The translations under genes were made by a program, and so were the position numbers. Positions 9,719-28,685 of a DNA stretch of 64,000 nt are shown piece after piece. Location of the stretch: NCBI GenBank assembly GCA_040007635.1, contig JBDTUR010000001.1, forward strand, positions 9,205-73,204, read 5' to 3'. The notes below the pieces were generated by a model. It did no database searches. It saw nothing but the letters and a program-made list of their open reading frames with translations, and was not told the origin of the DNA. The stretch comes from Chloroflexota bacterium. GTDB taxonomy: Bacteria; Chloroflexota; Limnocylindria; Limnocylindrales; CSP1-4. Each line of letters starts with the position of its first letter. The stretch's first letter is position 1.

Positions 9719-12700
9719 CTAGGAAATGGCGCGCTCCGATCCAAACCGGCTGGGGCAGATCAGGCGGTAGTCACACCGCCCGCAGCGCCAGATGTCAGGC
9801 GTCGCGGTGAAATCACCGCCGCGAATGCGGCGCGCCTTTTCGATGAGCGACACACGGAACTCGTCGAGCTGTTGGGGTGTGCGCGTCGTCGACAGACTCA
9901 GGTCGTTTTCCGTGAAGTACAGCGTCAACTTGGTCGCGGCCGGCAAGGGTTGCTTTGTCTGGGGGTCAAGAACCGCGCCCATGGCCGTCGCGAGCGCGTA
10001 TGCGGAAAGCTGCTCGTCCTGATCGACCTCGGACTGCTTCTTCGACTTGCCGGTCTTGTAGTCGATGATCTCGATCGACCCGTCAGCATGGCGATCGATG
10101 CGGTCGATGATGCCGTACAGCAGCACCGGCGCCTCGCCATCGCCCGCCGGCAGCTCGAGCGTGAAGCCCTGTTCGAACCCGACCGCCTGAGCGATGTTCT
10201 TGACCTCGCGCTCATAGAAGCGACGTAGAGCCGGCTCCGCGCGCTTGGCGTAGTGCTCAGCCGCCTGCACGTCGGCATAGTTGCGCGGTTCCCAGGCCGC
10301 GTCGAAAGCCTGCTTCAGCTCTTCGTAGTCCGGCGGCGTGTCGCCTGCTGCGATCGCGTCGCGCCGCTTGCGCGCGTAAACCTCGAAGGCGCTATGGATC
10401 ACGTGGCCAAACTCAAAGTAGCCGGGCGTCGTGGCCACCGGTATGCGGTAGACCTTGTTGAACGCGTACTGGAGCGGGCAATCGCTGTACATGCGCAGCT
10501 GGCTGTGCGAGAAGGTCTGCGGCAGCGCCGTCATCTCGAGCAGTGTCTTGCCCGCTGGGGCGTGGCGCGACAGGACATTGAGCGTGATGGGGTCAAGCCC
10601 GTTGCGGCGCGCCTCGCTGGCCGCGCTGGCCGCCGCCTCAGCGACCTCCACTAGTTCCTGGGTGAGGCTGCGGCGGCCCTCAACGTCGTCCGGCGCCAGG
10701 CCCTCGAGCATGCCGATGATCTCGATCGCGCGGCGGCGTAGCGCGAAGCGGCGTTCGTGGGCGAGCGGCACGGGCATCAGCTTGAGCAGCTGGACTGTCG
10801 TCTCCGGCGTCGTCTCTAGCGCACCGCGACCCAGGTCGTCGACATCTGAAGTGGCCTTTTGGGCGCGTTGTTCGATGACGATGTCATCGGGCGTGGCCGG
10901 GCGCTCGTACTCATCCGATGAGACCGGCGCCAGCGTTGGGCCACCGCGCTCGATCTCCGCCACGAAACGGCTGGGCTGGATCTTGGAACCCGACGGCTGG
11001 AGGGCGCTGAGCAGCAACCGGCTCCGGGCGCGGGTCATCGCCACGAACAGCAAGCGTCGCTCTTCATCGATGGCGTAGTCCTCAGGCGGCTTCTGCTTGA
11101 GGAGCTCGATGGGCAACAGGCGCTGCTCATCGCGCGTGTCCGGGAACTGTTGCTCGACGAGCCGCGGGACGGCGACCGCCTCGTACTCGAGGCCCTTCGC
11201 CTGGTAGATCGTCATGAGCTGCACGCCTTCGACCTCAACGCGGCCCATCTGGTCGGATTCGATGTCGCCCCCAACCTGCTCGTACAGGTCGAGATAGGTG
11301 ACGAACTGGCCCAGGCTGTCGCGCGGATGAGCCGCTTGCCAGTCCGCCACGAAGCGCATCACACGAGCGAGGGCGAGCACGCTCCGCTGGGCGTCAGGCG
11401 TCTCAGCCGCGATCAGGTCGTGCAGCAGGTTGGTGCGGATCATGAAGTCCTCGAGCACGGCGAACGGCCCGTCGCGCTGCCCGCGCGGCACGAGGACATT
11501 GAGCAGGCTGAGCAGCCGCTCGAGCTTCACCCGAAGACGCGCGTCGAGCTGCTCACGGCGCCACACGGCGCGCTGCTCACGGCTACGGCGCTGGCGAACC
11601 GTCTCCGGCTCACGTTCGTCGAAATCGGCGTCGTTCCAGAGCGTCTGTCCAACCGCCGCGCGCAGGGGCGCGTCCTTGGCGAGTGCCGCTGTGGGCGGCT
11701 CGCTGACACTGATCTCGCCCTCGCGCAGGATGTCAGTCGCGGCCTGGTATACGGCACGCCCATCCCACGCGGCTGCATTGGCAACGCGCAGGATCTCTGC
11801 AGCGTCGAGCCGCCATGGGCCTGCCGACAACAGCCGGACGAACGACGCGTTGTCATCTGGGTTGGCGGCCACGCGTAGTGCCGCCACGACGTCGCGGACG
11901 TCGGGCACGTTGAAGAGGCCGGCGCCGCCCACGACGACGTACGGGATGTCCTGCTTGCGCAGCCGCTCAACGATCAGCTCGCGATGGCGGTGGCGCCGAT
12001 ACAGAACGGCGATGTCGCTCCAGCGGCGTGGGCTGGGCAGGCTCGCAAAGGTGTCCTTGATCCAACCGACGACCAGGTCCGCCTCATCCGCCTCGTCAGT
12101 GGCGTGGACTACCCGAACGGGATCGCCCGGTTCCTTGATGGGCGTCAGCGGACCGCTCTTGAGGCGTTTCTGGTTGCGCGCGATAAGGCGGCTCGCGGCG
12201 GAGAGGATGTGCCCTGTTGAGCGGCGGTTCTCGAGCAGCGGCTGGCTGATGACCTTCTGGGCCGGGCGGTCGGGATCCCATGTAGGCGCGAGCTCGAAGC
12301 GCTCCTCGAAACGGCTGAATGCCGCGTACGAAGCACCGCGGAAGCGATAGATGGACTGATCGTCATCGCCCACAACCACCACGTTGTCAGGCTTGTTCGG
12401 CCCACGCCCGACCAGCTCGAGCAGCAGGATCTGGGCCATGTTGGCGTCCTGGAATTCGTCCACAAGGACGTGGCGGAACTGGTCCTGGTAGCGGCGCAGG
12501 ATGTTGGGCCGCTCAGTCAGCAGTTGGATTGCCAGCGCCTGCTGCTCGCCGAAATCGAGCAGGCCGCGCTCACGCAGCGTGGCCTGATAGGTCGCGTAGG
12601 CCTCTGCTTCCTCCCGGACGCGGAGCACTTCGAGCGCCTCCGCGTCGCGGACGAACGTGGGCTGGAGGCCCCTCGCGAGGTTGAGCTGGTCGGGCGTCAT

Positions 12701-13462
12701 CTCGCTCGGCCAGAGCAGATCGCCAGTGCCGGACGCCTCACGCCGCGCTTCGCGAAACGCCGACTTGAGGGCCTTGTCTCGGCCCTCCTTGATCAGGTCA
12801 CGGCGGACGATGTTGATCTGCCACAGGGTCCCGCGCGACTCACGGTCACGCAGGTCCGCGACCGCCTTGTCGAACTCGCCCTCCCCGTGCGCAGCATCAA
12901 ACTCGGCGCGCTTGCGCTGGGCATAGGCCATGTATTCATCCGGCGTGACCAGCTCATCCTTGGCGCGACTGATGACATCGGCAAAGCGCGCCGCGCCATT
13001 CAGATCACGCGCCATTGGGTGGTACAGGAAGTGGGCGAAGTGCGGCCGCAGCTCACGCAGCAGCAGGCGCTGGCCCACCCCGTCGAGCACGTCGCTGCTG
13101 TCAGCGAGCCCGAGGTCCGCCCGATGGTCCGACAGGATGCGGTTGCCAAACGAATGGAAGTTGTGCACCCACAGCCGGCTCGCGGTTTCGAGCCCCAGGA
13201 GCTGCTCGAGCCGCTCGATCAACTCCGCCGCCGCGCGCACGTTGTACGTCAGAACAAGGACGTTCTCCGGCGCCAGGCCAGGCTGAGTGCCCAGCAGATG
13301 ACGCACGCGCTCGACCACGACCGTGGTCTTACCGGTGCCCGCGCCGGCAAGCACCATAAGCGGCCCGTCGCCCCATTCGACTGCGGCCCGCTGTTCGTCC
13401 GTCAGCTCAAACTTGCGACCCTCGATCGCAGATCCCCTCTCCGCAACCACCATCGCTGCCAA
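9719..13462 (-). CDS. ATP-dependent UvrD/PcrA/AddA-type DNA helicase fused to a C-terminal PD-(D/E)XK Cas4/AddB-like Fe-S nuclease domain
   Basis: Helicase motifs are present: AGAGTGKTT (I), VDEFQDAN (II), VVGDDDQSIYRFRGA (III) and FVAMTRARSRLLL (VI). The C-terminus carries YSDCPLQY...IIDRIDRH..IEIIDYKTGK...CGRCDYRLIC, a four-Cys Fe-S nuclease. 1247 aa. Confidence 0.85.
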   Translation of the reverse strand: MAAMVVAERGSAIEGRKFELTDEQRAAVEWGDGPLMVLAGAGTGKTTVVVERVRHLLGTQPGLAPENVLVLTYNVRAAAELIERLEQLLGLETASRLWVHNFHSFGNRILSDHRADLGLADSSDVLDGVGQRLLLRELRPHFAHFLYHPMARDLNGAARFADVISRAKDELVTPDEYMAYAQRKRAEFDAAHGEGEFDKAVADLRDRESRGTLWQINIVRRDLIKEGRDKALKSAFREARREASGTGDLLWPSEMTPDQLNLARGLQPTFVRDAEALEVLRVREEAEAYATYQATLRERGLLDFGEQQALAIQLLTERPNILRRYQDQFRHVLVDEFQDANMAQILLLELVGRGPNKPDNVVVVGDDDQSIYRFRGASYAAFSRFEERFELAPTWDPDRPAQKVISQPLLENRRSTGHILSAASRLIARNQKRLKSGPLTPIKEPGDPVRVVHATDEADEADLVVGWIKDTFASLPSPRRWSDIAVLYRRHRHRELIVERLRKQDIPYVVVGGAGLFNVPDVRDVVAALRVAANPDDNASFVRLLSAGPWRLDAAEILRVANAAAWDGRAVYQAATDILREGEISVSEPPTAALAKDAPLRAAVGQTLWNDADFDEREPETVRQRRSREQRAVWRREQLDARLRVKLERLLSLLNVLVPRGQRDGPFAVLEDFMIRTNLLHDLIAAETPDAQRSVLALARVMRFVADWQAAHPRDSLGQFVTYLDLYEQVGGDIESDQMGRVEVEGVQLMTIYQAKGLEYEAVAVPRLVEQQFPDTRDEQRLLPIELLKQKPPEDYAIDEERRLLFVAMTRARSRLLLSALQPSGSKIQPSRFVAEIERGGPTLAPVSSDEYERPATPDDIVIEQRAQKATSDVDDLGRGALETTPETTVQLLKLMPVPLAHERRFALRRRAIEIIGMLEGLAPDDVEGRRSLTQELVEVAEAAASAASEARRNGLDPITLNVLSRHAPAGKTLLEMTALPQTFSHSQLRMYSDCPLQYAFNKVYRIPVATTPGYFEFGHVIHSAFEVYARKRRDAIAAGDTPPDYEELKQAFDAAWEPRNYADVQAAEHYAKRAEPALRRFYEREVKNIAQAVGFEQGFTLELPAGDGEAPVLLYGIIDRIDRHADGSIEIIDYKTGKSKKQSEVDQDEQLSAYALATAMGAVLDPQTKQPLPAATKLTLYFTENDLSLSTTRTPQQLDEFRVSLIEKARRIRGGDFTATPDIWRCGRCDYRLICPSRFGSERAIS

Positions 13463-13464
13463 GG

Positions 13465-14163
13465 CTAAGACTTTGGCGTGCCACCTTGTGCGTCACGCGG
13501 TTTAAGGCTCAGCAGGACAACCCCATTGCCACCTGGGTCGCGTGCTGCGCTGAGTGCCGCCATGACTTGGCGCGTGGTCAGCGGGAACGCTGCTGCAACG
13601 ATGTCTCGAGCGGCGTTCATTGCCCGGCGGTTCGCGTGGGTCGCCGCGACCACAACGACCAACCGATCGACCGTTCCGTCGCGCTGCTTCAGTTCGAACG
13701 CACGCAACTGCGCCTGGCAATCGTGAAATCGGCTGACGAATTCGAGCGCGCAACGGCAACCGGGGAGTTCCAGCACTCCATCCCACGCGCGCAGGTCACC
13801 GGGAGCGTCTGATACAGGGACCTCGGGCCGGAACCGGTGATCAGCGGGCAGCCTAGCCCGGAGCCCGGTGATGAGCTGAACGGACGCGGCGTCGCGCAGC
13901 GCATCGCCGTCCGGGTATGCGCGTATCCGGGCCCGCAATCCCACTGCAGCCGCATGGCGCGCCAGCTGCTCAGATCGCGCACCCGGCGTGCGAGCTCGCT
14001 CCGTGTCGAGAATCGTCGATGGGGCGACACCGACTGCCCGGCCGACCCCGCGCAGCGTTAGCCCGGCACTCAGCCGAGCCGTACGGAGATCGGCGCCGAA
14101 TTCCTGAAGGTCGCGCTGCATCAGCCATGCCGCGCGCTCGAGGCGTCGCTCTCTATTTGCCAT
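13465..14163 (-). CDS. HTH (XRE-like) domain protein with an uncharacterised C-terminal domain, immediately upstream of the helicase-nuclease
   Basis: GLTLRGVGRAVGVAPSTILDTERAR helix-turn-helix. Its stop lies 2 nt from the helicase start. Confidence 0.55.
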   Translation of the reverse strand: MANRERRLERAAWLMQRDLQEFGADLRTARLSAGLTLRGVGRAVGVAPSTILDTERARTPGARSEQLARHAAAVGLRARIRAYPDGDALRDAASVQLITGLRARLPADHRFRPEVPVSDAPGDLRAWDGVLELPGCRCALEFVSRFHDCQAQLRAFELKQRDGTVDRLVVVVAATHANRRAMNAARDIVAAAFPLTTRQVMAALSAARDPGGNGVVLLSLKPRDAQGGTPKS

Positions 14164-14407: not shown

Positions 14408-15206
14408 TCAGGAGGCGCGCGGCGCTACCGGGGCGTGGAACTGCTCGGCGCGGATGTTGGCCGCCGCGACGCCGGCCGCCAAAAGGACGCGCCGGCACGC
14501 CTCGATCATGTCCGGGTTGCCGCACAAGTACGCCGTCGAGTCGACAAGCGCGGGGTTGTCCAGAAGGAGTCGCTCAACCTGGGATTCGGCGCGGCCCACC
14601 GGGCCACTCCAACCTGAGTTGCGCCGCTCATGGGGCCGCGACACGGTCGGACGGTAGTCGATCGGCACGCCGCCAACCTGCCAGTCGCTGACGCGCGCCG
14701 CGTAGGCAAGCTCGGCGAACCACGAGACGCCATGGATCAGCACGTTGGGCGTGGTATCGCCGCGCGCGGACAAATCGTCGAGCATCGCCAGCAGCGGCGC
14801 CAGGCCTGTCCCGGTGCCGATCATTAGCCTGGGCCGCAGGTCAGCCGAATCCAGCACGAACAACCCACGGGCCGGCCCAACGTGCAGCCGCGCGCCCACG
14901 CGCAGCGCCCACAACATGTTTGAGAGTCGACCGTCGGGTAGGCGCCGGACAAACAGCTCGACCCGGGTCCCAGTTCGGTCGAGGGCGACGATCGAGTACG
15001 GCCGCTGAACCAACTTACCGTCGTGCTCGACGCCGAGCGACACGTACTGGCCGGGCTTGTACGCCCCGAGCGGCACATCGAGCACAAGGGCGAAGACGCC
15101 CAGCGTGCCCGTGACCTCGACGCGCGAGGCGAGCGTCGCGTTGGCAAGCACGGGATGCTGCCTGGATGCGACGCTGCGAGCCGGCAGCGAACGAAGCATG
15201 GTCATG
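14408..15206 (-). CDS. Ferredoxin-NADP+ reductase-type FAD/NAD(P)-binding oxidoreductase
   Basis: RPYSIV (FAD-binding RxYS motif) and GTGLAPLLAML (NAD(P)-binding). The ATG at 15206 overlaps the ferredoxin TGA (ATGA). Confidence 0.8.
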
Positions 15207-15498
15207 CCGCCGCTCCCGACAGCACCTCGGCCAGGACATCGCGCGCGGCACCCGCATCCCGGAACCAGGCCGCATCGATCCAGGCGTAGTCGGCCCACTT
15301 GGCGGGCAGGTCGGCCAAGGGATAGATCGCGTTGTTGGGACATACGGACAAGCACGAGCCGCACTCGATGCAGCCGTCGGGATCGATGTGGAACTTCCGA
15401 TCAATGCCCTCGACCGACGAGATGCAGTCGACCGGGCAGACCGCGACGCACGACTGATCCATGTGGTCGACGCACGGCTCGGCGATTACATAGGTCAT
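15202..15498 (-). CDS. 7Fe-type ferredoxin ([3Fe-4S][4Fe-4S], FdxA-like)
   Basis: MTYVIAEPCVDHMDQSCVAVCPVDCI...CIECGSCLSVCP, two Cys clusters; 98 aa. It lies inside a longer annotated ORF. Confidence 0.85.
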   Translation of the reverse strand: MTYVIAEPCVDHMDQSCVAVCPVDCISSVEGIDRKFHIDPDGCIECGSCLSVCPNNAIYPLADLPAKWADYAWIDAAWFRDAGAARDVLAEVLSGAAA

Positions 15499-16214
15499 GG
15501 CTGGAACTCCTGTGCTACGGGTACGGGTGCCTTGACGCGCGCTGCGGGACGAACCCCGCTGGCGAGGCTCAAAGTGATGCGGTAGACGAGCAGGAAGGCC
15601 ACGGCGACGGTGGCGATGGTGTAGGCCCAGAAAGCCCAGGCGGCGGGTGAGTCGGTGCCCGACATCAGGCCGTGTGCGGTCGCACCCACAAAGGCCAACA
15701 GCGTCGTGTAGTGGAGCAGTCGCCAGGCGCGCTGGCCAATCCGCCGGCGCACGCTGAACGACGCGTACACCGCGATCATCAGGTAGAAGGTGACCTGGCC
15801 GATGCCCACCCATTCAGGCCGGTACGGGCCGGCGAACGGGATGATCAGTTGGCGCACGGTCTGGGGCACGAAGGTGTCGAGCGCCAGCACGGCACCGTGC
15901 AACGCGGTCAGACCGATGGCGACCGCAGACAGATCCTGGTGCAGCGTGAAGGACACCACCCGGTGGGCGATCCGGTCGAGGATGCCAGTCGACAGCAGCA
16001 GCCCGTAGACCACTGATATGGCCAGCGCCCCGTACGCGAGGAAGCCCAGGACGCGCGTCGTGTACCAGGAGAGGCTGTCCTGATGCGCTGTCACCCAGTC
16101 AACGGCCAGGCCGGTGGCTGTGGGCGCGGTCGCGTAAAGGACCATCGTGACCGCGAGGCCGAACAACCCCCAGCGCAGCAGCCGCGTGCGCGGGCTCAGT
16201 CCTTGGTACTTCAT
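15495..16214 (-). CDS. Ferric-reductase-like transmembrane domain protein (di-heme b, MsrQ/FRD-type) without a fused FAD/NAD domain
   Basis: About six TM helices with conserved His in adjacent helices (HQDL...HGAVLALD; HYTTLLAFVGATAHGL). The ATG at 16214 overlaps the ApbE stop (ATGA). Confidence 0.65.
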   Translation of the reverse strand: MKYQGLSPRTRLLRWGLFGLAVTMVLYATAPTATGLAVDWVTAHQDSLSWYTTRVLGFLAYGALAISVVYGLLLSTGILDRIAHRVVSFTLHQDLSAVAIGLTALHGAVLALDTFVPQTVRQLIIPFAGPYRPEWVGIGQVTFYLMIAVYASFSVRRRIGQRAWRLLHYTTLLAFVGATAHGLMSGTDSPAAWAFWAYTIATVAVAFLLVYRITLSLASGVRPAARVKAPVPVAQEFQP

Positions 16215-17164
16215 GCCAGCCACGCCTCGACGCCGGGCAGGCTGACCACGCTGTTGTCCTCGAGCAGCAGGATCGCGGCCAGGGCGGCCGATCGAGCCAG
16301 AAAACCCAGCGCTTCGTGCGAGCCCAGGATGACGGCCGACTTGGCGATCATCTCCGCCTCACGCGCGCTAGGCGCGATCACAGTCGCCTGGACGACATCG
16401 GTTTGCGCCGGCTGACGGGTGCGCCGATCGATGAGATGGTGAGTCAGCCGACCATCCGCCAACTGCCAGTGATGGACGCTTGTGCCGGACGTCGCGACGC
16501 CGTAGCTCGCGGTCCACGAAGTGCCACCGCGCAACTTGAGCGTGGCAAGCGGTGGCGGCTCGACGCCTTCCGCCGCGAGTCGCGGATCCGCAATATCGAC
16601 CAGCCACTCGACGCCGCGGTCGGCGCGCAGGGCGATGTCGCCATCGGCGTCGACAACCACTCCCGGCCAGTGCGCCAGCAGGTCTGCCGCGCGGTCCGCG
16701 ATCCAACCTTTGGCCGTGCCATCGAGGTCGATGCGCACTCCTGGATCGCGCTCGACGATCGAGTCGCGCGCGGTGCCCAGTAGCTGCCACGTCCAACCAT
16801 TGGGTGTGGGCGAAGGCTCGAGGGCGGTCGCTGACTCGGCCGCGAGCCGCGCGTCGAGCAAGGTCGAGTCCACGACCCCGTCGGTGCGCTGCTGGGCCGT
16901 TTTGGCCCAGTGCAGCGCGGCGGCGAGTGTGGGCCTGACCGAAACGCGCGACTCGGCGGCCGAGTTCAGGTAGGAGAGATGGGATGCGTCGTTGAAGCGC
17001 GTCAGGCGCGCGGCCCAGGTCTCGACGCGCTGCACGGTGCGTCGCGCATCGATCTGTGCCTGCACAATGCGCTCGGGCTCCGCGGTGATGAAGACGCTGA
17101 GCGTCCCGCCCATCGACGGCGTTGAATGGGCCACGGTCTGGTAGTCGATTGCGTGCTCGTTCAT
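16211..17164 (-). CDS. apbE: FAD:protein FMN transferase (ApbE family flavin transferase)
   Basis: 317 aa of ApbE-like sequence, e.g. HSTPSMGGTLSV. Its start overlaps the stop of the upstream B2 gene (ATGA). Confidence 0.8.
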   Translation of the reverse strand: MNEHAIDYQTVAHSTPSMGGTLSVFITAEPERIVQAQIDARRTVQRVETWAARLTRFNDASHLSYLNSAAESRVSVRPTLAAALHWAKTAQQRTDGVVDSTLLDARLAAESATALEPSPTPNGWTWQLLGTARDSIVERDPGVRIDLDGTAKGWIADRAADLLAHWPGVVVDADGDIALRADRGVEWLVDIADPRLAAEGVEPPPLATLKLRGGTSWTASYGVATSGTSVHHWQLADGRLTHHLIDRRTRQPAQTDVVQATVIAPSAREAEMIAKSAVILGSHEALGFLARSAALAAILLLEDNSVVSLPGVEAWLA

Positions 17165-17745
17165 GGCCGCTTGCCTGACTGACGCGTGACAGGTTTGGGC
17201 GCGGCAGGGCGCGCCGCGGGCTGTGCTGCTTGGCCGCTGGGAGCGTTATGCGTAACGACGATCCGTGGCGTGGGGGCATTGGCGGCGATGACCTTCGCGC
17301 CTGGTGGCGCCGTCTCCCCGGGCTTGAGCTGGATGTACTGGGTCACATGCTGGACCGTCGTGGCGGGCACCTGTGCGACGGCATTGGGTTCAGCCGTAGG
17401 GTCGGATGCGCCGCTTTGGTCGGCGGTGGCGGCGAAGTCTGGCTGCACGAGTCCGACAGCCATGACACTCATCGCCGCCACCGCCCCGGCGCCGTAGACG
17501 AAGCGCATCGGCCGCGCATCGGGCTTGGACTGGCGGGAGTCCGTGCGCGCTGGTCGAGCGTCAGAAGGAGGGCGGGCCGCTGGGGCCGGCTGGGCTGAGC
17601 GCGCCATCTCGGCGGCCACCTCTCGCGCCAGGGCCATGATCATGTCGCGCGACACGCCGTCGGGCAGCTGCATGTCTGCAGGTTGCGCGGGCATGTTGCG
17701 TGCTGGCCGCGGCGGCAGCGGGGGGAGCGGACGATTGACTGGCAT
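17161..17745 (-). CDS. Pro/Ala-rich single-pass membrane protein, module B copy 2 (paralog of 18209-18934)
   Basis: Shared core MRFVYGAGAVAAMSVMAVGLVQPDF and YIQLKPGETAPPGAKVIAANAPTPRIV with its paralog. An SGAS motif follows the TM helix. The ATG shares the A of the A2 gene's TGA stop (TGATG, 1-nt overlap). Confidence 0.55.
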   Translation of the reverse strand: MPVNRPLPPLPPRPARNMPAQPADMQLPDGVSRDMIMALAREVAAEMARSAQPAPAARPPSDARPARTDSRQSKPDARPMRFVYGAGAVAAMSVMAVGLVQPDFAATADQSGASDPTAEPNAVAQVPATTVQHVTQYIQLKPGETAPPGAKVIAANAPTPRIVVTHNAPSGQAAQPAARPAAPKPVTRQSGKRP

Positions 17746-18080
17746 CAGTCGCCGCCTCGCTCGCCGCGATCGCCGCGATCGCCACGCTCGCCGTCACCTT
17801 GGCTGCGGGGCCGGCTGACTGTCGGCGCCGGCGTGGTGTTGTGGCGCGGCTTGTTGACGTGAACCACTGCCGGCTGCGGCGTGGGCTCGACGTAAACCTT
17901 GTCGATGACCGTCTTGGTCGTGTCAGGCGCTGCGGCCGCAGTCTGGTCACTGGCGGGTGTTGCGGCTGAGGTGTGAGCTGCCGTCGGCGCGGCAGAGAAG
18001 AGCCCACCCAGGTTCATTGCCAGGGCAAGGACGGCTGCCGCGCCGACACCACCGAGAAAGATTGCGAGCCGGTGAACCAT
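17745..18080 (-). CDS. Small signal-anchored protein with a collagen-like GDR/GER acidic tail, module A copy 2 (paralog of 18934-19422)
   Basis: Starts MVHRLAIFLGGVGAAAVLALA and has a GGAGG RBS 10 nt upstream of the ATG at 18080. The longer listed ORF (to 18155) has no RBS. Confidence 0.5.
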   Translation of the reverse strand: MVHRLAIFLGGVGAAAVLALAMNLGGLFSAAPTAAHTSAATPASDQTAAAAPDTTKTVIDKVYVEPTPQPAVVHVNKPRHNTTPAPTVSRPRSQGDGERGDRGDRGERGGD

Positions 18081-18208
18081 TTGCTTCGAGCCTCCGTTGT
18101 GCTTATCTGCTTCGGAGTCTGTCAGCGCGTTCTGTGGCCTCCATTTGCGACGCATTGGAGTTCGCTCACGCGGCGCAAGGCAGGCCCAGGGAGGACCCCG
18201 GGCAGGCC

Positions 18209-18934
18209 TTAGGGATGACCCGATTGACGCGTGGTGGGCTTGGGCGTGGGGCGAGGTGTGGGGCGCGGAGTCGCGGCTGGGCCCTGGGTGGGCCGGGGCG
18301 TGGTACTCACGCCACCGCCATTACCGCCGCCGCCATTTCCGCCGCCAGCGTTGCCGCCACCGCTGTGGGGCCGCGGCGTTGCCGTTGGGTCGGGGTTCGA
18401 TTGGTGGTTGCGCACGATGCGCGGCGGTGGCGCGCTCGCTGATATGACTGTCGCCCCGGGCGGTGCCGTCTGGCCGGGCTTGAGATAGACGTAGCGGATC
18501 ACGTGACGCACCTTGCCGCCGCGCCCACCCCCGCTGGTGCCGGTGGCATCGGGTTGGGCAGCGTCGGTGCCATCAGGCAGGAGCGCGATCGCACCCGGAT
18601 CGTCTGTTGGGTTGAAGCTTTCATCGGTTGGGCCCGGATCGGCGGTCGAGGTCCAGTCGGGTTGCACGAGGCCCACGGCCATGATGCTCATTGCCGCAAC
18701 CGCGCCTGCGCCGTAGACCACGCGCATTGGCCGTGGATCGGGCCGATTGGCGGGACGGCGTGCGGGCCCCCCAGCGCTGCCGGCGGTGGCCGGACGATGC
18801 TCGATCCCCGCGCGTGGCCGCGAGGCGCGCGGGACGTCAGCCGCGACCGCCTCCGCCTCTTCGCCGCGCCGTGGCGGCAGCGGCCGGCCAGACGTCGCCG
18901 ATCTTCGCCCGGAATCAGGCTCTTGAGCGGCCAT
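18209..18934 (-). CDS. Pro/Ala/Gly-rich single-pass membrane protein, module B copy 1
   Basis: About 45% identity over the core with 17161-17745 (MRVVYGAGAVAAMSIMAVGLVQPDW; YVYLKPGQTAPPGATVISASAPPPRIV). Confidence 0.55.
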   Translation of the reverse strand: MAAQEPDSGRRSATSGRPLPPRRGEEAEAVAADVPRASRPRAGIEHRPATAGSAGGPARRPANRPDPRPMRVVYGAGAVAAMSIMAVGLVQPDWTSTADPGPTDESFNPTDDPGAIALLPDGTDAAQPDATGTSGGGRGGKVRHVIRYVYLKPGQTAPPGATVISASAPPPRIVRNHQSNPDPTATPRPHSGGGNAGGGNGGGGNGGGVSTTPRPTQGPAATPRPTPRPTPKPTTRQSGHP

Positions 18935-19422
18935 CAGTCGTCGCCCGGCTCATGGCCGCCATCGTCGGACCCGCCATCGTGGGACCCGCCGTCGTGGGAC
19001 CCGCCGTCGTCCGAGTGCTCGCCGCCATCATGCTCGTCCTCGCCCCCGGCCTGGCCGTCATCACCGCCCACGTTGCCACCGCCGCCGTTGCGCGTCGGGC
19101 GGGGCGTGTCACTGGGCTGGTTGCCTTTGTCGCCTGCGGGCTTGTCGGTACGCACGACCACCGGCTTGCTCGGCGGCAGGACATAGATCGTGTCGACCTT
19201 CTTGACGGACGGCGCGGCCTGGTCCGTGCCCAGATCGGTCACCAGGGCCAGGGGATCAGTGGGCGCAACCTGCGCCAGCTGATCGGCGCCGGTTACATCA
19301 TTCGCGACAGGCACGAACGCGTCTGGAGTGGTTGGCGGCGCTGACCCATTCAGTGTCAGCGCCAGGGCGAGAACACCGGCCGCGCCGGCGCCGCCCATCA
19401 GCAATGCAAGTCGGTGAACCAC
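18934..19422 (-). CDS. Small signal-anchored protein with a Gly/Asp/His-rich tail (DGGSHDGGSHDGG), module A copy 1
   Basis: GTG start with a GGAGGAG RBS. N-terminus MVHRLALLMGGAGAAGVLALA and motif KKVDTIYVLPPSKPVVVRTDKP are shared with copy 2. Its TGA stop shares one nucleotide with the ATG of the next gene (TGATG). Confidence 0.55.
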   Translation of the reverse strand: MVHRLALLMGGAGAAGVLALALTLNGSAPPTTPDAFVPVANDVTGADQLAQVAPTDPLALVTDLGTDQAAPSVKKVDTIYVLPPSKPVVVRTDKPAGDKGNQPSDTPRPTRNGGGGNVGGDDGQAGGEDEHDGGEHSDDGGSHDGGSHDGGSDDGGHEPGDD

Positions 19423-19496
19423 GGCTGCTCCTCCTCTTGAAAGATCACGGCTGAGGCGCAGTCTGGGCGGCCCGTCTGTGGCGAGTTTTAGGTGAG

Positions 19497-19527
19497 CATT
19501 TGAATTCCCAAAGGAAGGCCATTTGAA
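19497..19527. promoter_or_regulatory. Direct repeat CATTTGAA (19497-19504 and 19520-19527) in the lower-GC divergent promoter region between the A/B operon and the response-regulator gene. Candidate OmpR-family binding site.
   Basis: Two exact 8-mers 23 bp apart centre to centre. Confidence 0.3.
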
Positions 19528-19556
19528 CCTTGCGCAGCGCGGCTGGCGATGCCTAT

Positions 19557-20243
19557 ATGGAAGCCATGAAGCGAGTCCTGCTCGTCGAAGACCAAGAGCG
19601 CATGGCCGACGCCGTGCGGCGCGTGCTCGTGGCTGAGCGCTACACGGTTGACGTCGCCGCCGACGGCGAGACCGCGCTCGAACTGAGCCGGCAGCACAGC
19701 TACGACGTCGTGCTGCTGGATCGAATGCTGCCGGGGATCAGCGGCGAGCAGGTGCTGCGCACCATGCGCCGGCGCGGCAACTCGACGCCCGTGCTCATGG
19801 TCACGGCCCTTTCCGCACTCGACCACCGCGTCGAGGGACTGGACGCCGGCGCCGACGACTATTTGCCCAAGCCCTTCGCGTTCAGCGAGCTGCTCGCACG
19901 CCTGCGCGCCCTCACCCGTCGCAGCCCAGAACTCGTGGCCGAGCGGCTTGCGGCGGGCACGATCGAGCTCGATCCAGATCGCCACCAGGTGACAGTGGGC
20001 GAGCGGAGCGAGCTGCTGTCGGCGCGCGAATACGCACTGCTGGGCTATCTCATACGCCACGCCGGCCAGGTGGTGACGCGCCAGCAGATCCTCGACTCGG
20101 TCTGGGGCGCGGAGCCTGACGTGTATTCGAACGTCGTCGACCTGTACATCCATTACCTGCGGCGCAAGCTGGGCGCGCTGGGCCAGAACAAGGCGTTACG
20201 CACCGTGCGCGGAGTCGGTTATGCGCTTCAACCGGGCGGCTAA
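19557..20243 (+). CDS. OmpR-family two-component response regulator
   Basis: Receiver domain (VLLVEDQ...D...LLDRMLPG...PVLMVTA...K) plus a winged-helix trans_reg_C domain (GYALQ terminus). Confidence 0.9.
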   Translation: MEAMKRVLLVEDQERMADAVRRVLVAERYTVDVAADGETALELSRQHSYDVVLLDRMLPGISGEQVLRTMRRRGNSTPVLMVTALSALDHRVEGLDAGADDYLPKPFAFSELLARLRALTRRSPELVAERLAAGTIELDPDRHQVTVGERSELLSAREYALLGYLIRHAGQVVTRQQILDSVWGAEPDVYSNVVDLYIHYLRRKLGALGQNKALRTVRGVGYALQPGG

Positions 20244-21750
20244 ACCACTCGTTACGGCGGTGACGCCATCGGACCGCCTGGTCCGACGAACATCGCGCGG
20301 CCTGGCCTTCGTCACGCTCGCATTGATCGCCGCTCTGCTGGCCGGGGTGGGCCTGGTCACGGCGGCGGTCGCGATTGGCATGACCAACGAGAACATCGAC
20401 CGCACGTTGGAGCAAGCCGCTTCCGTCCGACTGGGCGAGATCGAGACACTGCTCCAGCAGGAGACCGACCAAGAGGGACAACCGAGTCAGACGTCCAGTC
20501 CCGAAAACGAAAACGGATCTGAAGATGGCGCGACCTCCCAAGAAGGCGAAGGCGTACCGGGCGCGACGTCGGAAGTGACGCCGGTGCCCACCCCTGCCCC
20601 GACGGCCACACCCATGCCGTCCGGCCTTGGTCTGGTTGATAGCGACGAAGCGCAGCTCGAATCCTTCCAGACCTTCTACCTGGTGCTCGACACCAACGGC
20701 AACGTGCTCTCCAATCCGCAGCAGATCAGGCTCGCCGGACTGCCCGACGCCGCCGCGGCGGAAGCAGCAAGGCGCGGTGACGATCTGCGCACGGTGACCG
20801 TGGGCGGCATCCATATCCGCCTGCTCACCCGGCGCGTCATGAACACGAGGAGCGAGGTTGTCGCTCTGCTCCAGACCGGGTTCCTGCTGACGCAGCACGA
20901 CCAGCAAACGAACACGATCCTGATCACGATCGCACTGGTCAGCCTGATCGGACTGCTGGGTGCCGCGGTGGTGACGCTGGTGGTCACGACGCGCGCCATG
21001 GGACCAATTCGCTCAGCCTTCAATGCTGAGCGACGCTTCGTCGCGTCGGCGTCGCACGAGCTACGGACACCCGTCGCCGTCGTCCGCGCATCGGCCGAAA
21101 TACTGCAGCGCGAAGGCCTGGTACAGCCCGACGGCCAACGCCTCGTCGCGGACATCGTGTCCGAATCTGACCGGCTGGGGCGGCTGGTGGGCGACCTGCT
21201 GGCGCTCGCATCCGCCGATGCCGGCGCAATCGTGGTGAAACCAGAGGAGATCGAGATGCGCGGCTTCGTCGCCGAACTGGCGCGGCGCGCGGAGGCGATC
21301 GCGACCGAGCGCGGTGTCAAGCTGGAGCTCGTCCAGGAGCGCGCGTCCGGGGCCGATCGCGCTCTCCTCGTGCGCGCCGATCCCGACCGCATGACCCAGC
21401 TGTTGCTGATCTTCATCGACAACGCGATCGACCACTCCCCGGCCGGCGGCACGATCCGCCTGTCTGTGGCGCCACTCAACGAGGGTCGCCAGCCGCAGAT
21501 CTGCGTGGGCGTCGCGGACCAGGGGCCGGGCGTGCCAATGCACGAGCGACTGCGCATCTTCGAGCCATTCGCGCGCCTCGCCGGCCGGCGCCGCGAGACG
21601 GGCAATACCGGCCTGGGCCTGGCCATCGCCCGCGTCCTCGCCGCGCGTCAGGACGCGACGCTCCACGTTGACGACGCCACCGGCGGCGGCGCGGTGTTCA
21701 GTGTCTGGCTGCCGCGCCGGAGCGCTACCGGAGCCGCGGCCAACAACTGA
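20221..21750 (+). CDS. Sensor histidine kinase (two TM segments, periplasmic sensor with an acidic Pro/Thr low-complexity insert, HisKA + HATPase_c)
   Basis: H-box SASHELRTPVAVV, N/G boxes, C-terminal GGAVFSVWLP. Overlaps the regulator gene by 23 nt. Confidence 0.9.
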   Translation: MRFNRAAKPLVTAVTPSDRLVRRTSRGLAFVTLALIAALLAGVGLVTAAVAIGMTNENIDRTLEQAASVRLGEIETLLQQETDQEGQPSQTSSPENENGSEDGATSQEGEGVPGATSEVTPVPTPAPTATPMPSGLGLVDSDEAQLESFQTFYLVLDTNGNVLSNPQQIRLAGLPDAAAAEAARRGDDLRTVTVGGIHIRLLTRRVMNTRSEVVALLQTGFLLTQHDQQTNTILITIALVSLIGLLGAAVVTLVVTTRAMGPIRSAFNAERRFVASASHELRTPVAVVRASAEILQREGLVQPDGQRLVADIVSESDRLGRLVGDLLALASADAGAIVVKPEEIEMRGFVAELARRAEAIATERGVKLELVQERASGADRALLVRADPDRMTQLLLIFIDNAIDHSPAGGTIRLSVAPLNEGRQPQICVGVADQGPGVPMHERLRIFEPFARLAGRRRETGNTGLGLAIARVLAARQDATLHVDDATGGGAVFSVWLPRRSATGAAANN

Positions 21751-24136: not shown

Positions 24137-24864
24137 ATGGCCCGTATCGTCCGCGGCGCTCTGATCCAGGCAACCTGGACGGGCGACAAGGAATCGATGA
24201 TCCAGAAGCACGAGCAGTACGCCCACCAGGCGGCCAAGGACGGCGCCCAGGTGATGCTGTTCCAGGAGCTCTTCCACGGGCCCTACTTCTGCCAGGTCCA
24301 GGATCCGCAGTACTACTCGTACACGGAGCTGATCCCCGACGGGCCAATCACCACTCTGCCGTCGATGCAAACTGGGGTGTGACCCTCCGCAAGCACGACG
24401 AGTTCTTCATGACCGGCTACCGACGCGGTAGCAGGGCCCGCTGCGGCGCCGATTCAACCGGTTACAAGCTCTTCGCCCTGAGCGCCAAGCGCTGCGCCAA
24501 CAAGGGCTACAACTTCCGCGAGATCCTGCGCGTCTACTACGGCCCGGGCCTCCAGCTGGTCGAGGGCAGTTCGGCCGGGTCGTCGACTTCTGCCGCACAG
24601 GCGCCCAGCGCGCAGTCGCCGGCGGCGGAGCCGTTGACACAGCAAGCGACGACGCCGGCCGTCGACCCGCAACCAGCTCAGCAGGCGCCTGGCGAGCCGC
24701 GCATGTTCGCCTTCCCACCGGCAGATCGCCCAGCGCGCGCCGGCGCCACAAGCGTGTTGGTGGCGCGCGCTCCAGGGCGGTCGCGCAAAACCACGAGACT
24801 CGGCGCCGCGTTCAGCGTCTGGCTGCCTCGGCGTCCAGGGGACGAGGCGCCGGCGAGCGCTTGA
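24137..24864 (+). pseudogene. Mosaic gene remnant made of three fragments, frame-shifted between the first two. Fragment 1 is the 5' 70 codons of the nitrilase gene (about 97% nt identity to 28743-28903). Fragment 2 is a diverged copy of the SpoIID-like C-terminal domain. Fragment 3 is a histidine-kinase C-terminus-like segment (VLVAR...AAFSVWLPRR).
   Basis: My own nucleotide comparison of 24194-24354 vs 28743-28903 (5 mismatches in about 160 nt). Protein similarity of 24379-24560 to 23830-24000. HATPase_c-like ending at 24750-24840 resembling 21660-21720. Confidence 0.55.
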
Positions 24865-27067
24865 CCGGCCGGGTCGCGGGAGCGCCGGCTTCGAGGCGCT
24901 CGATCAGGCCATCGGCGCCCATCGCCGCGAAGAGCGCCTGGGCCTCTGCGCGCCCATCGGCCGCGTCCTTGTCCCGGTCGCCCAGCAACCGCGCACGTTC
25001 CAGCAGCGTCAGCGCCAGGTCGAAGCGCAGGTCGGCCGCGCGCCAATCGTCGATCACACGCCGGTAGAGGCGGGCCGATTCGTCGAAGCTGCCGTCGAGC
25101 GCCAATGCGCCGGCGTCTATCGCGCGGCGCGACTTGTCGACCCAGTTGGCGGCCGCCGCATTGTGGAGGAACCAATCGCGATCCTGGTTTACCGCATCGG
25201 CATCGCCCATCAGCAACGCAACGTGTGCGGCGAGCACAGTGGCAATGCCTCCCGCGCGGGGGTATGCCTCGGCTGACTGGACGGCCAGCCGCCGGGCGTC
25301 GGCCAGCCGGCCTTCGGCCAGGGCAATGCACGCATGAATGTAGTGCAGCGTGGCGGCGTCCTGCGCCGAGCTCGAGCTGGCGACCTGGCTCTCGAGGGGC
25401 GCCATCCGCTCGCGTGCGCCGGCGCGATCGCCGCGCAAGGCCAGGACGATGGCCGCGTGACCGCGCACGAAAGCGCCGAGGGAGCCGGAGCCCTCGATCG
25501 CACCGGCCTCGAGCCGCACGACCTCGTCCAGGTCACCGATCAGCTGCGCGGCGTGGGCGGCGTTGCCGGCCATGCTCCCGCGAGCAATGCCGTACTGGCG
25601 GCTGATGGCAATGCCCGCTTGGGCAATCTCGAGCGACTGGTACGGATCCTCGATGATCAGGTAGCCGCTGAGGTTGAAGCGAGCACGCAATCGTGAGAAC
25701 AGCTCATCCTCCTGATCGGCCATGTGCATCGCGCCGGTCAGCAACGCGACTGCCTCACGGAATCGACCAAGCATGTTGAGCGCCCAGGACTTGGTGATGA
25801 TCAGCTGCAGCGTCGGCCCGCGAATCTGGAGCCGCTCGGCGGTCTCAAGAGCATGCGCCACAGCTGTCGCCGCAGGTTCGCCTTCGCCGCGAAACAGGTG
25901 CCCGCGCGCAAGTTGACCGTTGAGGGCAATACCGGCCCGGCTCTCTTCCGACGGCAGGCTGGCCAAAGCCGCGCCGAGCATGGTCATTGCCTCGTCGATG
26001 CGTGAAATCTCGAGCAGCCATGAGCCCAGCTGCGCCGTGATCTCGCCGGCCTGATCGAGGTCGCTGCGCTGCTCCTGCCATGCCTTGGCCGCGGCCAGGT
26101 TGGCCAGCGCCACCTCGACGTTGCCGGCATTCCAGGCGGCTTGACCGGCCCGGACACGGAGGTCGTTCAGATCCTGCTCCTCGAAGGTGACCGCCATGGC
26201 CTGCTCGTAGTAGGTCAGCGCCTGGTCGTGCGAATGAAGCCGCACGGCGCGGTCGGCAGCGGCCCGCAGGGCAACGCGCGCCTGGGCGGCAACCGCCGCC
26301 CCTTCCTCTCCCTCCGGTGCGGCCTGGAACGCCTCCAGGTAGTGACTGGCCAGCATGCCGGCCAACTCGTCGTCGCCCAGCGTGTCGAAATAGCGCGCGG
26401 CCGCCAGGTGGCGGCTGCGCCGCTCACGCTTGGACAGCATGGCGTATGCGATCTCGCGAATGAGGCCCTGCTTGAAGTGGTGCTGACCTCGCTCCGGTGA
26501 GCGCGGATCAGACTCCAACGCGAGGAGCTCCTTGTGCGCCAGGGCGCGCAGCCGGGGCTCGACTTCCTGGGCCGACTTGCCCGTCAGGGCGGCCAACGCG
26601 GTGATCGGGAAGACCTGACCCAGCACGGCCGCGTCCTGGAGAAGAGCGCGGTCGTCGGCGTCGAGCGCGTCGAGGCGCGAGGAAATGAGCGCCCTCAGGG
26701 TTGGTGGCACATCGAGCGCGGGCAGGTCGCCGTGCAGCTCGTAGACGTCGCCCTGCCGTACGAGGTGGCCGCCGTCGGCCAGGGCGCGGACCATCTCGAC
26801 CGCATACAGCGGCACACCCGCGGCGCGCTCGATGATGCGCGCCAGGTCCTCCTGGGCAAGTGCCGGCACAAGTCCGCGGAGCATCTCGCCCATGGCATCC
26901 TCAGCCAGCGGCTCGAGGTGAAGGGCAACCAGCGCGCGGCGGCCCATGCCGAAGTTCGGCCGGCGCTCGAGCAGTTCCGGCCGGGCGAGAGTCACGATCA
27001 GGATCGGCTGGTCGCGCGTCCATTCGAGCAGGTGCTCGATGAAGTCGAGCATCCGTTGTCGGCCCAC
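24812..27067 (-). CDS. C-terminal part (AAA ATPase remainder + TPR-like repeats) of a frameshifted adenylate cyclase-ATPase gene
   Basis: Begins ...LDFIEHLLEWTRDQPILIVTLARPELLERR, the expected continuation of the upstream ORF's FEDLQWAD. Long alpha-helical repeat region. Confidence 0.7.
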   Translation of the reverse strand: MGRQRMLDFIEHLLEWTRDQPILIVTLARPELLERRPNFGMGRRALVALHLEPLAEDAMGEMLRGLVPALAQEDLARIIERAAGVPLYAVEMVRALADGGHLVRQGDVYELHGDLPALDVPPTLRALISSRLDALDADDRALLQDAAVLGQVFPITALAALTGKSAQEVEPRLRALAHKELLALESDPRSPERGQHHFKQGLIREIAYAMLSKRERRSRHLAAARYFDTLGDDELAGMLASHYLEAFQAAPEGEEGAAVAAQARVALRAAADRAVRLHSHDQALTYYEQAMAVTFEEQDLNDLRVRAGQAAWNAGNVEVALANLAAAKAWQEQRSDLDQAGEITAQLGSWLLEISRIDEAMTMLGAALASLPSEESRAGIALNGQLARGHLFRGEGEPAATAVAHALETAERLQIRGPTLQLIITKSWALNMLGRFREAVALLTGAMHMADQEDELFSRLRARFNLSGYLIIEDPYQSLEIAQAGIAISRQYGIARGSMAGNAAHAAQLIGDLDEVVRLEAGAIEGSGSLGAFVRGHAAIVLALRGDRAGARERMAPLESQVASSSSAQDAATLHYIHACIALAEGRLADARRLAVQSAEAYPRAGGIATVLAAHVALLMGDADAVNQDRDWFLHNAAAANWVDKSRRAIDAGALALDGSFDESARLYRRVIDDWRAADLRFDLALTLLERARLLGDRDKDAADGRAEAQALFAAMGADGLIERLEAGAPATRPVKRSPAPRPLDAEAARR

Positions 27068-28374: not shown

Positions 28375-28685
28375 TTCTCACTCCAAGTGACGGGACTCAA
28401 CGGTCAGCGTACTACTCCACCCGCGCACGACCGCGTCGGTGATACGCCCTGCCAAGCAACTTCTCGCCTCCGGGACGCTAGCCCGTCGACCACGCTACCG
28501 AGACTGACGCAGGCGGGGCCTGCCCAGCCGGCAGCGCCTCAGCCAGGTGCTCCGCGGGCGATAGATTGCCCCACTGGTCGATCGCTGGGCCGCCAGTACC
28601 CCGTTAGACGCGGTGCTACATCAAGCGCCCGTTGTACGCTGTGAGCGCACTACCCAGTCATCCCCCAGTTGCCGAGGTAACTCAG

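Follow-up and report, generated by a model that had tools for sequence, protein, structure and literature searches.

A conserved Chloroflexota operon linking a signal-peptide-less ApbE-family protein to a ferric-reductase-type membrane protein: a possible transmembrane electron-export module

Flavinylation by ApbE is currently seen mainly as an extracytosolic process directed to one short consensus site, and the main genomic survey left genomes with an orphan apbE still unexplained (PMC8238504). What would be the role of an ApbE-family protein that is predicted to stay in the cytoplasm and whose gene is fixed beside that of a putative two-heme membrane cytochrome? This question is raised by an eight-gene operon in a 64,000-nucleotide stretch of the genome of a Chloroflexota bacterium (contig JBDTUR010000001.1, positions 9,205 to 73,204; hereafter the window, to which all coordinates refer). 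The answer favored here, tentatively and with a probability of about 0.45, is that the operon encodes a module, specific to the Chloroflexota lineage and controlled by a two-component system, that exports electrons across the membrane and in which a cytoplasmic ApbE would act as a maturation enzyme.

The operon occupies the minus strand from 19422 to 14408, in a window of about 65-70% G+C, as eight head-to-tail open reading frames (ORFs) in the order A1, B1, A2, B2, ApbE, FRD (ferric-reductase-domain protein), ferredoxin (Fdx) and FNR (ferredoxin/flavodoxin-NAD(P)+ reductase-type flavoprotein), where A and B denote two kinds of small membrane protein, each encoded twice. Reading of the sequence revealed TGATG junctions with a 1-nt overlap at A1/B1 and A2/B2, and ATGA junctions with a 4-nt overlap at B2/ApbE, ApbE/FRD, FRD/Fdx and Fdx/FNR, leaving the 128 nt from B1 to A2 as the sole gap. 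The ORF coordinates and this reading confirmed the eight minus-strand ORFs and the junctions as they had been placed in an initial annotation of the locus, and the stop/start overlaps bore out, at the level of sequence, its view of a co-transcribed and translationally coupled operon.

The extent of the conserved unit was determined in a scan of one genome per species, which yielded 375 stretches with relatives of FRD; the best 80 loci were taken, and the window proteins were mapped onto all ORFs of these loci by phmmer and then, for A and B, by iterated profiles. Conservation was counted in the 46 loci of Limnocylindria type that had 8 kb of flank on both sides (full-flank loci). B was present in all 46, A in 44, and a cleanly detected ApbE in 44, the gene being frame-broken in the other two. 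A response regulator and a histidine kinase were divergently adjacent in 36 of the 46, in agreement with the divergent two-component system first noted beside the operon in the window, and nine full-flank loci kept A-B-ApbE-FRD without a two-component system. The conserved unit is A-B-ApbE-FRD, four genes rather than eight, usually under a two-component system. Because it recurs in dozens of species-level genomes, the arrangement is not a chance juxtaposition. The co-occurrence of A- and B-like genes with the ApbE-reductase genes, on which the initial annotation had staked its proposal, was thereby established, and it extended to all of the metagenomic contexts checked: around divergent FRD or B proteins, the gene order was the same in every context examined. 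In other Chloroflexota classes (FRD 37-46% and ApbE about 35% identical), two small bitopic ORFs still stood beside ApbE-FRD, one with an acidic/His tail ending in DD and the other with a basic, Ser-containing C-terminus. Adjacency of ApbE and FRD held from 90% to about 35% ApbE identity, despite changes in gene order. In the loci and contexts covered, A and B were seen only beside ApbE-FRD.

Two copies of the module, A-B-(ApbE)-FRD, were seen in several genomes, at loci L063 and L041 and at the locus pairs L027/L028, L026/L057, L018/L021 and L031/L036, often with one copy having and the other lacking a two-component system. The only recurrent extra neighbors of the loci were unannotated genes of housekeeping type, one for a protein of about 1,000 aa and one for a protein whose N-terminus resembles peptidyl-tRNA hydrolase; both were recognized by eye alone.

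FRD (15495-16214, minus strand; 239 aa) is a predicted six-transmembrane (six-TM) protein of the MsrQ/NOX type. Its closest relatives are named Chloroflexota or Candidatus Limnocylindrales, and PF01794 (Ferric_reduct) is precomputed for many of its close homologues. Two His pairs with NOX-type spacing were found, H92-x13-H106 in TM3 and H168-x12-H181 in TM5. In an alignment of 23 homologues (58-90% identity) five His residues were invariant, four of which form the heme-ligand pairs, and an outer-loop motif directly after the outer TM5 His, HGLM[SAT]G[TS]D, was invariant across the whole clade. Hydropathy and charge placed both termini, the TM2-3 loop and the Arg-rich TM4-5 loop in the cytoplasm; the protein ends about 25 residues past TM6, with no dehydrogenase domain fused to it. 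An AlphaFold2 model contained six membrane-length helices and two short ones, and its top Foldseek matches were STEAP1, STEAP2, SpNOX and NOX5 (probability 0.97-1.0, TM-score about 0.47-0.50). Judged by sequence, FRD is a two-heme, NOX-like member of its superfamily with an MsrQ-like TM4-5 loop, and b-hemes are predicted. The invariant His residues and the structural matches to STEAP, SpNOX and NOX5 support the initial annotation of a stand-alone ferric-reductase-type membrane domain with both heme-ligating His pairs, namely H92/H106 and H168/H181.

The direction of electron flow was addressed by the genes that follow FRD in other classes. A membrane-anchored Haem_bd protein (PF14376, CxxCH; E ~1e-37) is encoded after FRD in L075, L081 and L084, L073 has a similar but unscored Haem_bd-like ORF after FRD or nearby, and L080 encodes a NapC/NirT-type cytochrome c with five CxxCH motifs after FRD (L080:8561-9196). 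Limnocylindria lack Haem_bd or NapC/NirT genes at the locus and have A and B only. Heme proteins directly after FRD in other classes support the theory of outward electron transfer to extracytoplasmic partners. The Haem_bd protein of L075 has an acidic tail of the A type, and a protein encoded near the module in L079 ends in a run of about 24 Asp.

The ApbE-family protein (16211-17164, minus strand; 317 aa) is assigned to the FAD:protein FMN transferase family (FAD, flavin adenine dinucleotide; FMN, flavin mononucleotide) by its match to the Pfam ApbE family PF02424 (E=1.6e-38; 133.2 bits against a cut-off of 25.6 bits), and its relatives in the PDB are 4xdt and 4ifu (E ~2e-10). The catalytic-His motif THHLID (equivalent to V. 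cholerae H257) aligned with yhHiID of T. pallidum Ftp (4xdt), was invariant in four orthologues and was kept as HH[LI][IL]D in most or nearly all of 150 representatives. No upstream extension of the ORF is possible, and the start, MNEHAIDYQTVAHSTPSMGG, leads directly to the N-terminal MGG/MGT motif of the family. No signal peptide, lipobox or TM segment was found in the window protein or in about 75 orthologous loci, and a hydrophobic N-terminal segment was absent from 149 of the 150 nearest cluster representatives, down to about 35% identity; these export-signal calls rest on hydropathy rather than on a dedicated predictor. Because an export signal was absent from the window protein, its orthologues and 149 of 150 representatives, ApbE is predicted to be cytoplasmic and, by sequence, belongs to a large signal-peptide-less subfamily; the enclosing subfamily has thousands of members in metagenomes. 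The earlier expectation that this ApbE would flavinylate extracytoplasmic proteins was not sustained, since signal peptide, lipobox and TM segment were missing across the clade. Pfam analysis detected no FMN_bind, DUF2271 or DUF3570 domain in the cluster proteins.

An enzymatic role for ApbE was suggested by locus L063, in which two A-B-FRD sets are accompanied by one ApbE and the first set (A-B-FRD-Fdx-FNR) has no ApbE of its own: as one ApbE serves two sets, it probably acts as an enzyme and not as a stoichiometric subunit. Three database entries of 464-729 aa in which B, ApbE and FRD appear to be fused were rejected as fusion proteins, because out-of-frame filler between the pieces identified them as frameshifted assemblies. 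These pseudo-fusions (P0267, P0280 and P0313), which are public metagenome gene calls, come from indel-rich, high-G+C assemblies and could mislead domain-fusion analyses.

A and B matched no Pfam or NCBIfam family. Each has one TM segment (KD19 ~2.0) with a positive N-flank and an acidic C-flank; from hydropathy and flank charges both are predicted N-in/C-out bitopic proteins with extracytoplasmic segments, as the initial annotation had supposed. A1 (18934-19422, minus strand; 162 aa) has a GTG start with the ribosome-binding site GAGGAGGAG ahead of it, a signal anchor at residues 6-24 (KD19=1.97, flank charges +2/-1), a short conserved core, VDTIYVLPPSKPVVV, and an acidic Gly/His/Asp tail that ends in GDD. 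Its paralogue A2 (17745-18080, minus strand; 111 aa; 36% identity, E=3e-7) has GGAGG ahead of an ATG start that agrees with the MVHRLA N-terminus of homologues. The A family was found in 62 loci; the last 35 residues of its tails consist of 16% D, 15% E, 13% G, 12% R and 6% H and nearly always end in DD.

B1 (18209-18934, minus strand; 241 aa) and its paralogue B2 (17161-17745, minus strand; 194 aa; 53% identity, E=5e-34) are built on one plan. In B1 a Pro/Arg-rich cytoplasmic N-terminus is followed by the TM segment VVYGAGAVAAMSIMAVGLV, the core VRHVIRYVYLKPGQTAPPGATVI..PPPRIV, a Pro-rich tail and the C-terminal TRQSGHP; B2, which is 100% identical to a hypothetical protein from a Chloroflexota metagenome-assembled genome, ends in TRQSGKRP. 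Across the family the small-residue-rich TM helix (YGAGAVAA.SVMAVGLV) and a 45-residue, Pro-containing core (VRHV..YV.LKPGQTAPPGA.VI..AP.PR.VV) were conserved. The C-terminus T[RH]QSG[KRH]P was present in about 78 of 82 Limnocylindria proteins, the rest of the tail being hypervariable, and in other Chloroflexota classes B ends in ..SS[RK], ..SSK(P) or ..GS, so that a Ser lies within the last four residues throughout. The AlphaFold2 model of B2 contained the N-terminal helix only and no globular fold; its core was extended, with fair local confidence and no secondary structure, as would suit a segment that needs a partner in order to fold. We take A and B, as a proposal drawn from these features, to be integral partners of the FRD protein. 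The start calls of NCBI for the B genes are shorter (172 aa for B1 and 170 aa for B2), and the A-to-B overlaps depend on the long starts; the long forms are favored because an N-terminal (P)LPPR motif upstream of the TM segment is conserved in distant B homologues. The B profile also picked up A ORFs (E 1e-4 to 1e-16), which suggests that A and B are distant paralogues, the shared part being perhaps mostly the TM anchor. In two distant A-like proteins (L086:4235-4681 and L087:4105-4599) a segment of about 50 aa, ..YSV....VYKVTFSSG.IVYVS..G.I.., resembled PepSY (PF03413) by eye; this identity was unconfirmed, with no Pfam match at E<=1 and no PDB relative.

The last two genes of the operon would supply the electrons. 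The ferredoxin (15202-15498, minus strand; 98 aa) is of the 7Fe (3Fe-4S + 4Fe-4S) FdxA type, with the Cys pattern Cx7Cx3CP...CxxCxxCx3CP (C9, C17 and C21; C43, C46, C49 and C53) and a Fer4 match at E=4.6e-10. Its best NCBIfam match was FdxA_Actino (E=7.6e-27), and as the score of 93.7 bits lies below the equivalog cut-off of 125 bits, the protein is FdxA-type and not of the exact FdxA_Actino orthologue group. FNR (14408-15205, minus strand; 265 aa) has the Pfam domains FAD_binding_6 and NAD_binding_1. The Fdx-FNR pair was linked to the module in 16 of the 46 full-flank loci, after FRD in eight and after the kinase, on the other strand, in another eight; it is an add-on that occurs often but is not obligatory. 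At one locus the after-kinase position of Fdx-FNR is taken by genes for pyruvate:ferredoxin oxidoreductase: a metagenome contig (JGI 3300047160, 20.9 kb; the context of P0198) carries POR_N/PFOR_II/POR, CBS and TPP_enzyme_C plus Fer4 genes after the kinase. The add-on in two independent positions, together with the pyruvate:ferredoxin oxidoreductase locus, indicates that ferredoxin-level reducing power is the input in at least some genomes. The initial annotation had counted the 7Fe ferredoxin and FNR as links of a NOX/FRE-type chain. As a cytoplasmic, NAD(P)H-driven input the pair is plausible here; as part of the core it did not hold, being found in 16 of 46 loci and in two positions.

Under the electron-export reading, NAD(P)H would reduce the FAD of FNR, which would then reduce ferredoxin; ferredoxin would dock on the basic cytoplasmic face of FRD, and the two FRD hemes would carry electrons across the membrane to an acceptor at the outer face. 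The small-residue TM helices of A and B would pack on FRD, with their extended cores pairing mutually or with the outer loops of FRD, and the acidic/His tail of A would bind a substrate cation, which is most likely a metal, be it Fe(III) or another. That a metal such as Fe(III) is the most likely acceptor follows from reading the acidic/His tails as cation- or mineral-binding, and it is inference only. Cytoplasmic ApbE would be a catalytic maturation factor for one of the cluster proteins, on which it would place FMN at a non-canonical site. The preferred target, ranked first of the in-cluster ideas at a modest probability, is the cytoplasmic face of FRD, where a flavin would stand in for the dehydrogenase FAD of NOX or for the FMN that faces the cytoplasm in E. 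coli MsrQ; of all steps in the scheme, this one is the weakest. Cytoplasm-facing flavins have precedents in the superfamily, in the MsrQ FMN held by R77/R78 and the STEAP FAD (PMC12525009). The wider proposal, that the signal-peptide-less ApbE clade non-canonically flavinylates, in the cytoplasm, a component of a membrane cytochrome, either FRD or the C-terminal Ser of B prior to export, is doubtful, with the odds set well against it.

Several findings weigh against the electron-export reading or against individual steps of it. No conserved D-x-x-[ST]-G-A-[ST], the consensus of ApbE targets (PMC12052999), was present in A, B, ApbE, FRD, Fdx, FNR, the response regulator or the histidine kinase across 84 loci. 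The alignments revealed no cytoplasmic Ser or Thr of FRD that is invariant across classes; the sole invariant hydroxyl specific to the clade is T/S187 in HGLM.G[TS]D, which, being on the outer side, is out of reach of a cytoplasmic enzyme. The Asp/Thr of the ApbE Mg site (DADALAT), which are the Mg ligands in characterized ApbEs such as T. pallidum Ftp, aligned to EAEMIAK, in which Glu271 and Lys275 replace them; this E..K variant is common in the signal-peptide-less clade, some other classes have E..T, and such residues at the Mg-ligand positions might signify altered chemistry. Neither Cys nor a cofactor motif was present in A and B, and no fold was predicted for them. The window FRD scored below the gathering cut-off of PF01794 (E=1.1e-4; 22.7 bits against 28 bits), and its structural model had a pLDDT (predicted local distance difference test) of 65, a low confidence due to the shallow alignment, and was used for family-level fold matching only. 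Fdx-FNR was absent within 8 kb in 30 of the 46 loci, so the electron donor may vary from genome to genome or have its gene at another site. The identity of the acceptor is a guess, as no metal transporter recurs in the neighborhood; indeed, no recurrent neighbor that would name the acceptor, such as a metal transporter or an MsrP-type gene, was found in the locus neighborhoods.

The nature of the ApbE target separates three of the competing explanations. The initial annotation had pointed to SGAS in B2 (ADQSGASDP) as a likeness of the flavinylation motif, and an extracellular ApbE might flavinylate B2 there, the flavinylated B2 then taking electrons from the outer heme. ADQSGAS does lie directly outside the B2 TM helix, B always adjoins ApbE, and ApbE can accept as its substrate a short flavin tag within an unstructured stretch (PMC12052999). 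This explanation is very improbable, however, as no ApbE export signal exists anywhere in the clade, and SGAS was rejected as a flavinylation site: of 82 B proteins, 4 had an SGAS/TGAT-type sequence at this point and B1 was not among them, a frequency in line with background, given that [ST]GA[ST] occurs in 5-10% of unrelated ORFs of the same loci, with their Ser/Gly/Ala-rich proteome, and the Asp of DQSGAS is one position off the D-x-x-[ST]-G-A-[ST] register. A cytoplasmic ApbE might instead modify the C-terminal Ser of B before the unfolded, Pro-rich part is exported, creating a 'flavin on a leash' whose tethered outer FMN would relay electrons without export of FAD. Conservation across classes of a Ser in the last four residues of an otherwise hypervariable tail would be accounted for, flavin tags work best at protein termini (PMC12052999), the stop codon of B overlaps the start of ApbE, and B, having no predicted fold, could be exported post-translationally. 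The C-terminal motif of B is nevertheless unlike D-x-x-[ST]-G-A-[ST], its conservation is equally explained by a binding determinant, and export of a flavinylated chain is without precedent, which renders this course of events distinctly unlikely. Also unlikely is a canonical FMN_bind target whose gene lies in another part of the genome, with shared regulation or a shared pathway as the only link to FRD. The Klebsiella fumarate reductase system (PMC12052999) is one example of a cytoplasmic ApbE acting on a distant target, and the view of this genome is limited to 64 kb, but an adjacency of ApbE and FRD that persists from 90% to about 35% identity would be difficult to account for if the two were not directly linked in function.

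That adjacency, with translational coupling in nearly all loci, would equally suit an ApbE that is no transferase at all, but a cytoplasmic partner of FRD that binds or hydrolyzes FAD and either supplies FMN non-covalently, as in MsrQ, or is a redox-inert assembly subunit. The missing target motif and the replacement of the Mg-ligand Thr by Lys in Limnocylindria point the same way, and T. pallidum Ftp, the closest solved ApbE relative, is also an FAD pyrophosphatase. Retention of HH[LI][IL]D in nearly all relatives and the L063 set with no ApbE of its own argue otherwise, and an MsrQ-type flavin pocket, which replaces the inner heme, is unexpected since FRD keeps four heme His; a non-transferase role was judged improbable. 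In the last explanation FRD would be a NOX-like generator of superoxide, or would pass electrons in the manner of MsrQ to a periplasmic repair enzyme whose gene is unlinked, and A and B would modulate the sensor kinase instead of being redox partners. The fold family includes both NOX and MsrQ, the two-component system is conserved beside the operon, and small bitopic proteins are often modulators of kinases. It is quite improbable all the same, because no MsrP-type gene recurs nearby, nine full-flank loci kept the module without any two-component system, and heme proteins stand directly after FRD in other classes.

Regulation of the electron-export module was predicted from the divergent genes and the region between them. 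The response regulator (19530-20243, plus strand; Response_reg + Trans_reg_C) is of the OmpR family, and its true start is probably the ATG at about 19566 (MKRVLLVED). Its best NCBIfam match was RppA (231 bits against a cut-off of 250 bits), followed by the heavy-metal CopR/CzcR/SilR family, and the histidine kinase (20221-21750, plus strand; HisKA + HATPase_c), which has an extracytoplasmic loop, matched RppB best, far under the cut-off. Sensing of redox state or metals by this system is compatible with these matches but unproven. The divergent intergenic region (19423-19565) contains two copies of CATTTGAA, at 19497-19504 and 19520-19527, with three copies in the whole window against 0.62 expected. 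The direct repeat reported in the initial annotation is therefore real; it is not conserved in orthologous promoters, and as a different element is shared there, CATTTGAA was rejected as the binding site of the regulator. Many orthologous loci (L001-L060) share CTTTGAGAAC.CTCA(T/C) about 100 nt upstream of A, an element with internal dyad symmetry (TGAGA..TCTCA) that could serve as a promoter or as a binding site of the regulator; at about 19495-19515 the window carries it in a lengthened and altered form, which contains the CATTTGAA duplication. A sigma-70 consensus scan, uninformative for this phylum, found no promoter-like site. A terminator-like hairpin with a T-run at 14374-14362 (minus strand), about 35 nt past the FNR stop, is the probable end of the operon, although it is a consensus match only and terminator-like hairpins were no more numerous in the window than in shuffled sequence; the hairpin scan found none inside the operon, including the B1-A2 gap.

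Other features of the window were recorded alongside the operon. An HTH_31 gene (13465-14163, minus strand) with an atypically low third-position G+C (0.69 against about 0.83) lies between FNR and an AddA-like helicase-nuclease gene (9719-13462); because the helicase gene directly follows FNR in the related loci L001 and L003, the HTH_31 gene is probably an insertion. Three very long minus-strand ORFs, at 41624-46996 (1790 aa), 47081-52180 (1699 aa) and 54530-57616 (1028 aa), probably encode giant surface proteins. Their stretch has the lowest G+C of the window (0.60-0.63), and the recurrence of ELAPSPKSQ in short ORFs in alternative frames hints at internal repeats; beside the long ORFs lie a gene for a Beta_helix/NosD protein (37274-39472) and a flippase-like gene of the Polysacc_synt/MatE kind (39756-41174). 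The plus-strand ORFs 24137-24382 (81 aa) and 28632-29537 (301 aa) have near-identical starts (MAR.VRGAL.QA.WTGDKESMIQKHEQYAHQA) and flank one or more zinc-ribbon/adenylate-cyclase/AAA_16 genes at 24812-28374, an arrangement that resembles a partial duplication.

The combination of a cytoplasmic ApbE, a NOX/MsrQ-type cytochrome and two small proteins makes this operon a conserved and experimentally tractable orphan. Discovery of the substrate would either widen the recognition rules of ApbE or reveal a non-transferase role for the family, and would also give a function to a widespread membrane redox module of the Chloroflexota, bacteria that are abundant in soil and freshwater and whose metal reduction and envelope redox chemistry have received little study. 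If true, non-canonical cytoplasmic flavinylation would constitute a new class of ApbE substrate without [ST]GA[ST], and would allow a single-membrane bacterium to build a flavin-cytochrome conduit without exporting FAD.

Comparison with known systems places the operon between several of them. FRD shares with SpNOX, NOX5 and STEAP the H-x13-H/H-x12-H spacing in TM3 and TM5 and, by prediction, an inside-to-outside electron flow, whereas the FAD/NADPH domains of NOX and STEAP are on the same chain and belong to other Pfam families (FAD_binding_8/NAD_binding_6 or F420-type), those functions being separate here. As no dehydrogenase domain is fused, the operon is not a NOX proper, and the likeness does not extend to O2 as the acceptor, for which there is no evidence here. 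E. coli MsrQ and Fre, described as a 'two-component NOX-like system' (PMC12525009), likewise combine a stand-alone protein of the FRD superfamily with a separate NAD(P)H flavoprotein of the FNR superfamily, and a similar R..G..W..LH motif is present in the TM4-5 loop of MsrQ. MsrQ, however, has one heme and a non-covalent, cytoplasm-facing FMN, with an Arg in place of the inner TM3 His that FRD keeps as His92, and it feeds the molybdoenzyme MsrP (PMC12525009), whereas in the present operon ferredoxin and ApbE are interposed. Since MsrP is absent from the operon and the four His are all present, the operon is not MsrPQ.

Among ApbE systems, the cytoplasmic ApbE of Klebsiella pneumoniae, which acts on a soluble fumarate reductase, also lacks a signal peptide, but its substrate is an FMN_bind protein with the canonical motif (PMC12052999), of which the present cluster has none. 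The Listeria locus FmnB-PplA-Ndh2-EetAB (PMC9973259) is likewise an operon of a single-membrane bacterium in which an ApbE-type enzyme is coupled with electron export at the membrane; there FmnB is extracytosolic and needs a dedicated flavin exporter, and quinone, rather than a di-heme cytochrome, carries the electrons through the membrane (PMC9973259).

The closest likeness is to the 'MsrQ-like' flavinylation clusters (Meheust et al. 2021, eLife, PMC8238504; Huang et al. 2024, PMC11334425). In these clusters, as in the present operon, apbE lies beside a PF01794-type six-TM cytochrome with predicted heme sites, NAD(P)H is the proposed cytoplasmic donor, and outward transfer, possibly iron reduction, is proposed. 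In the clusters ApbE is secreted or lipidated and its FMN_bind substrate is extracytosolic, in contrast to the present operon with no signal peptide and no FMN_bind, DUF2271 or DUF3570 domain; their NAD-binding domain is usually fused to the cytochrome, whereas here a separate FNR and 7Fe ferredoxin are found, together with the new proteins A and B. A literature search found nothing on this cluster in Limnocylindria. The initial annotation had considered the combination undescribed, which was right in part: the operon is a variant of the 'MsrQ-like' clusters and of the split Fre-MsrQ idea, and the signal-peptide filter of the 2021 survey, which discarded genes without a signal peptide (PMC8238504), would have excluded it. 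For that survey a cluster combined PF01794 with ApbE, FMN_bind, DUF2271 or DUF3570, and a signal peptide or lipidation site was demanded in one or more of these (PMC8238504); here a PF01794-like domain does lie beside ApbE and the signal peptide is lacking. By its predicted way of working, the operon is therefore best regarded as a variant of the 'MsrQ-like' clusters that falls outside their published operational definition.

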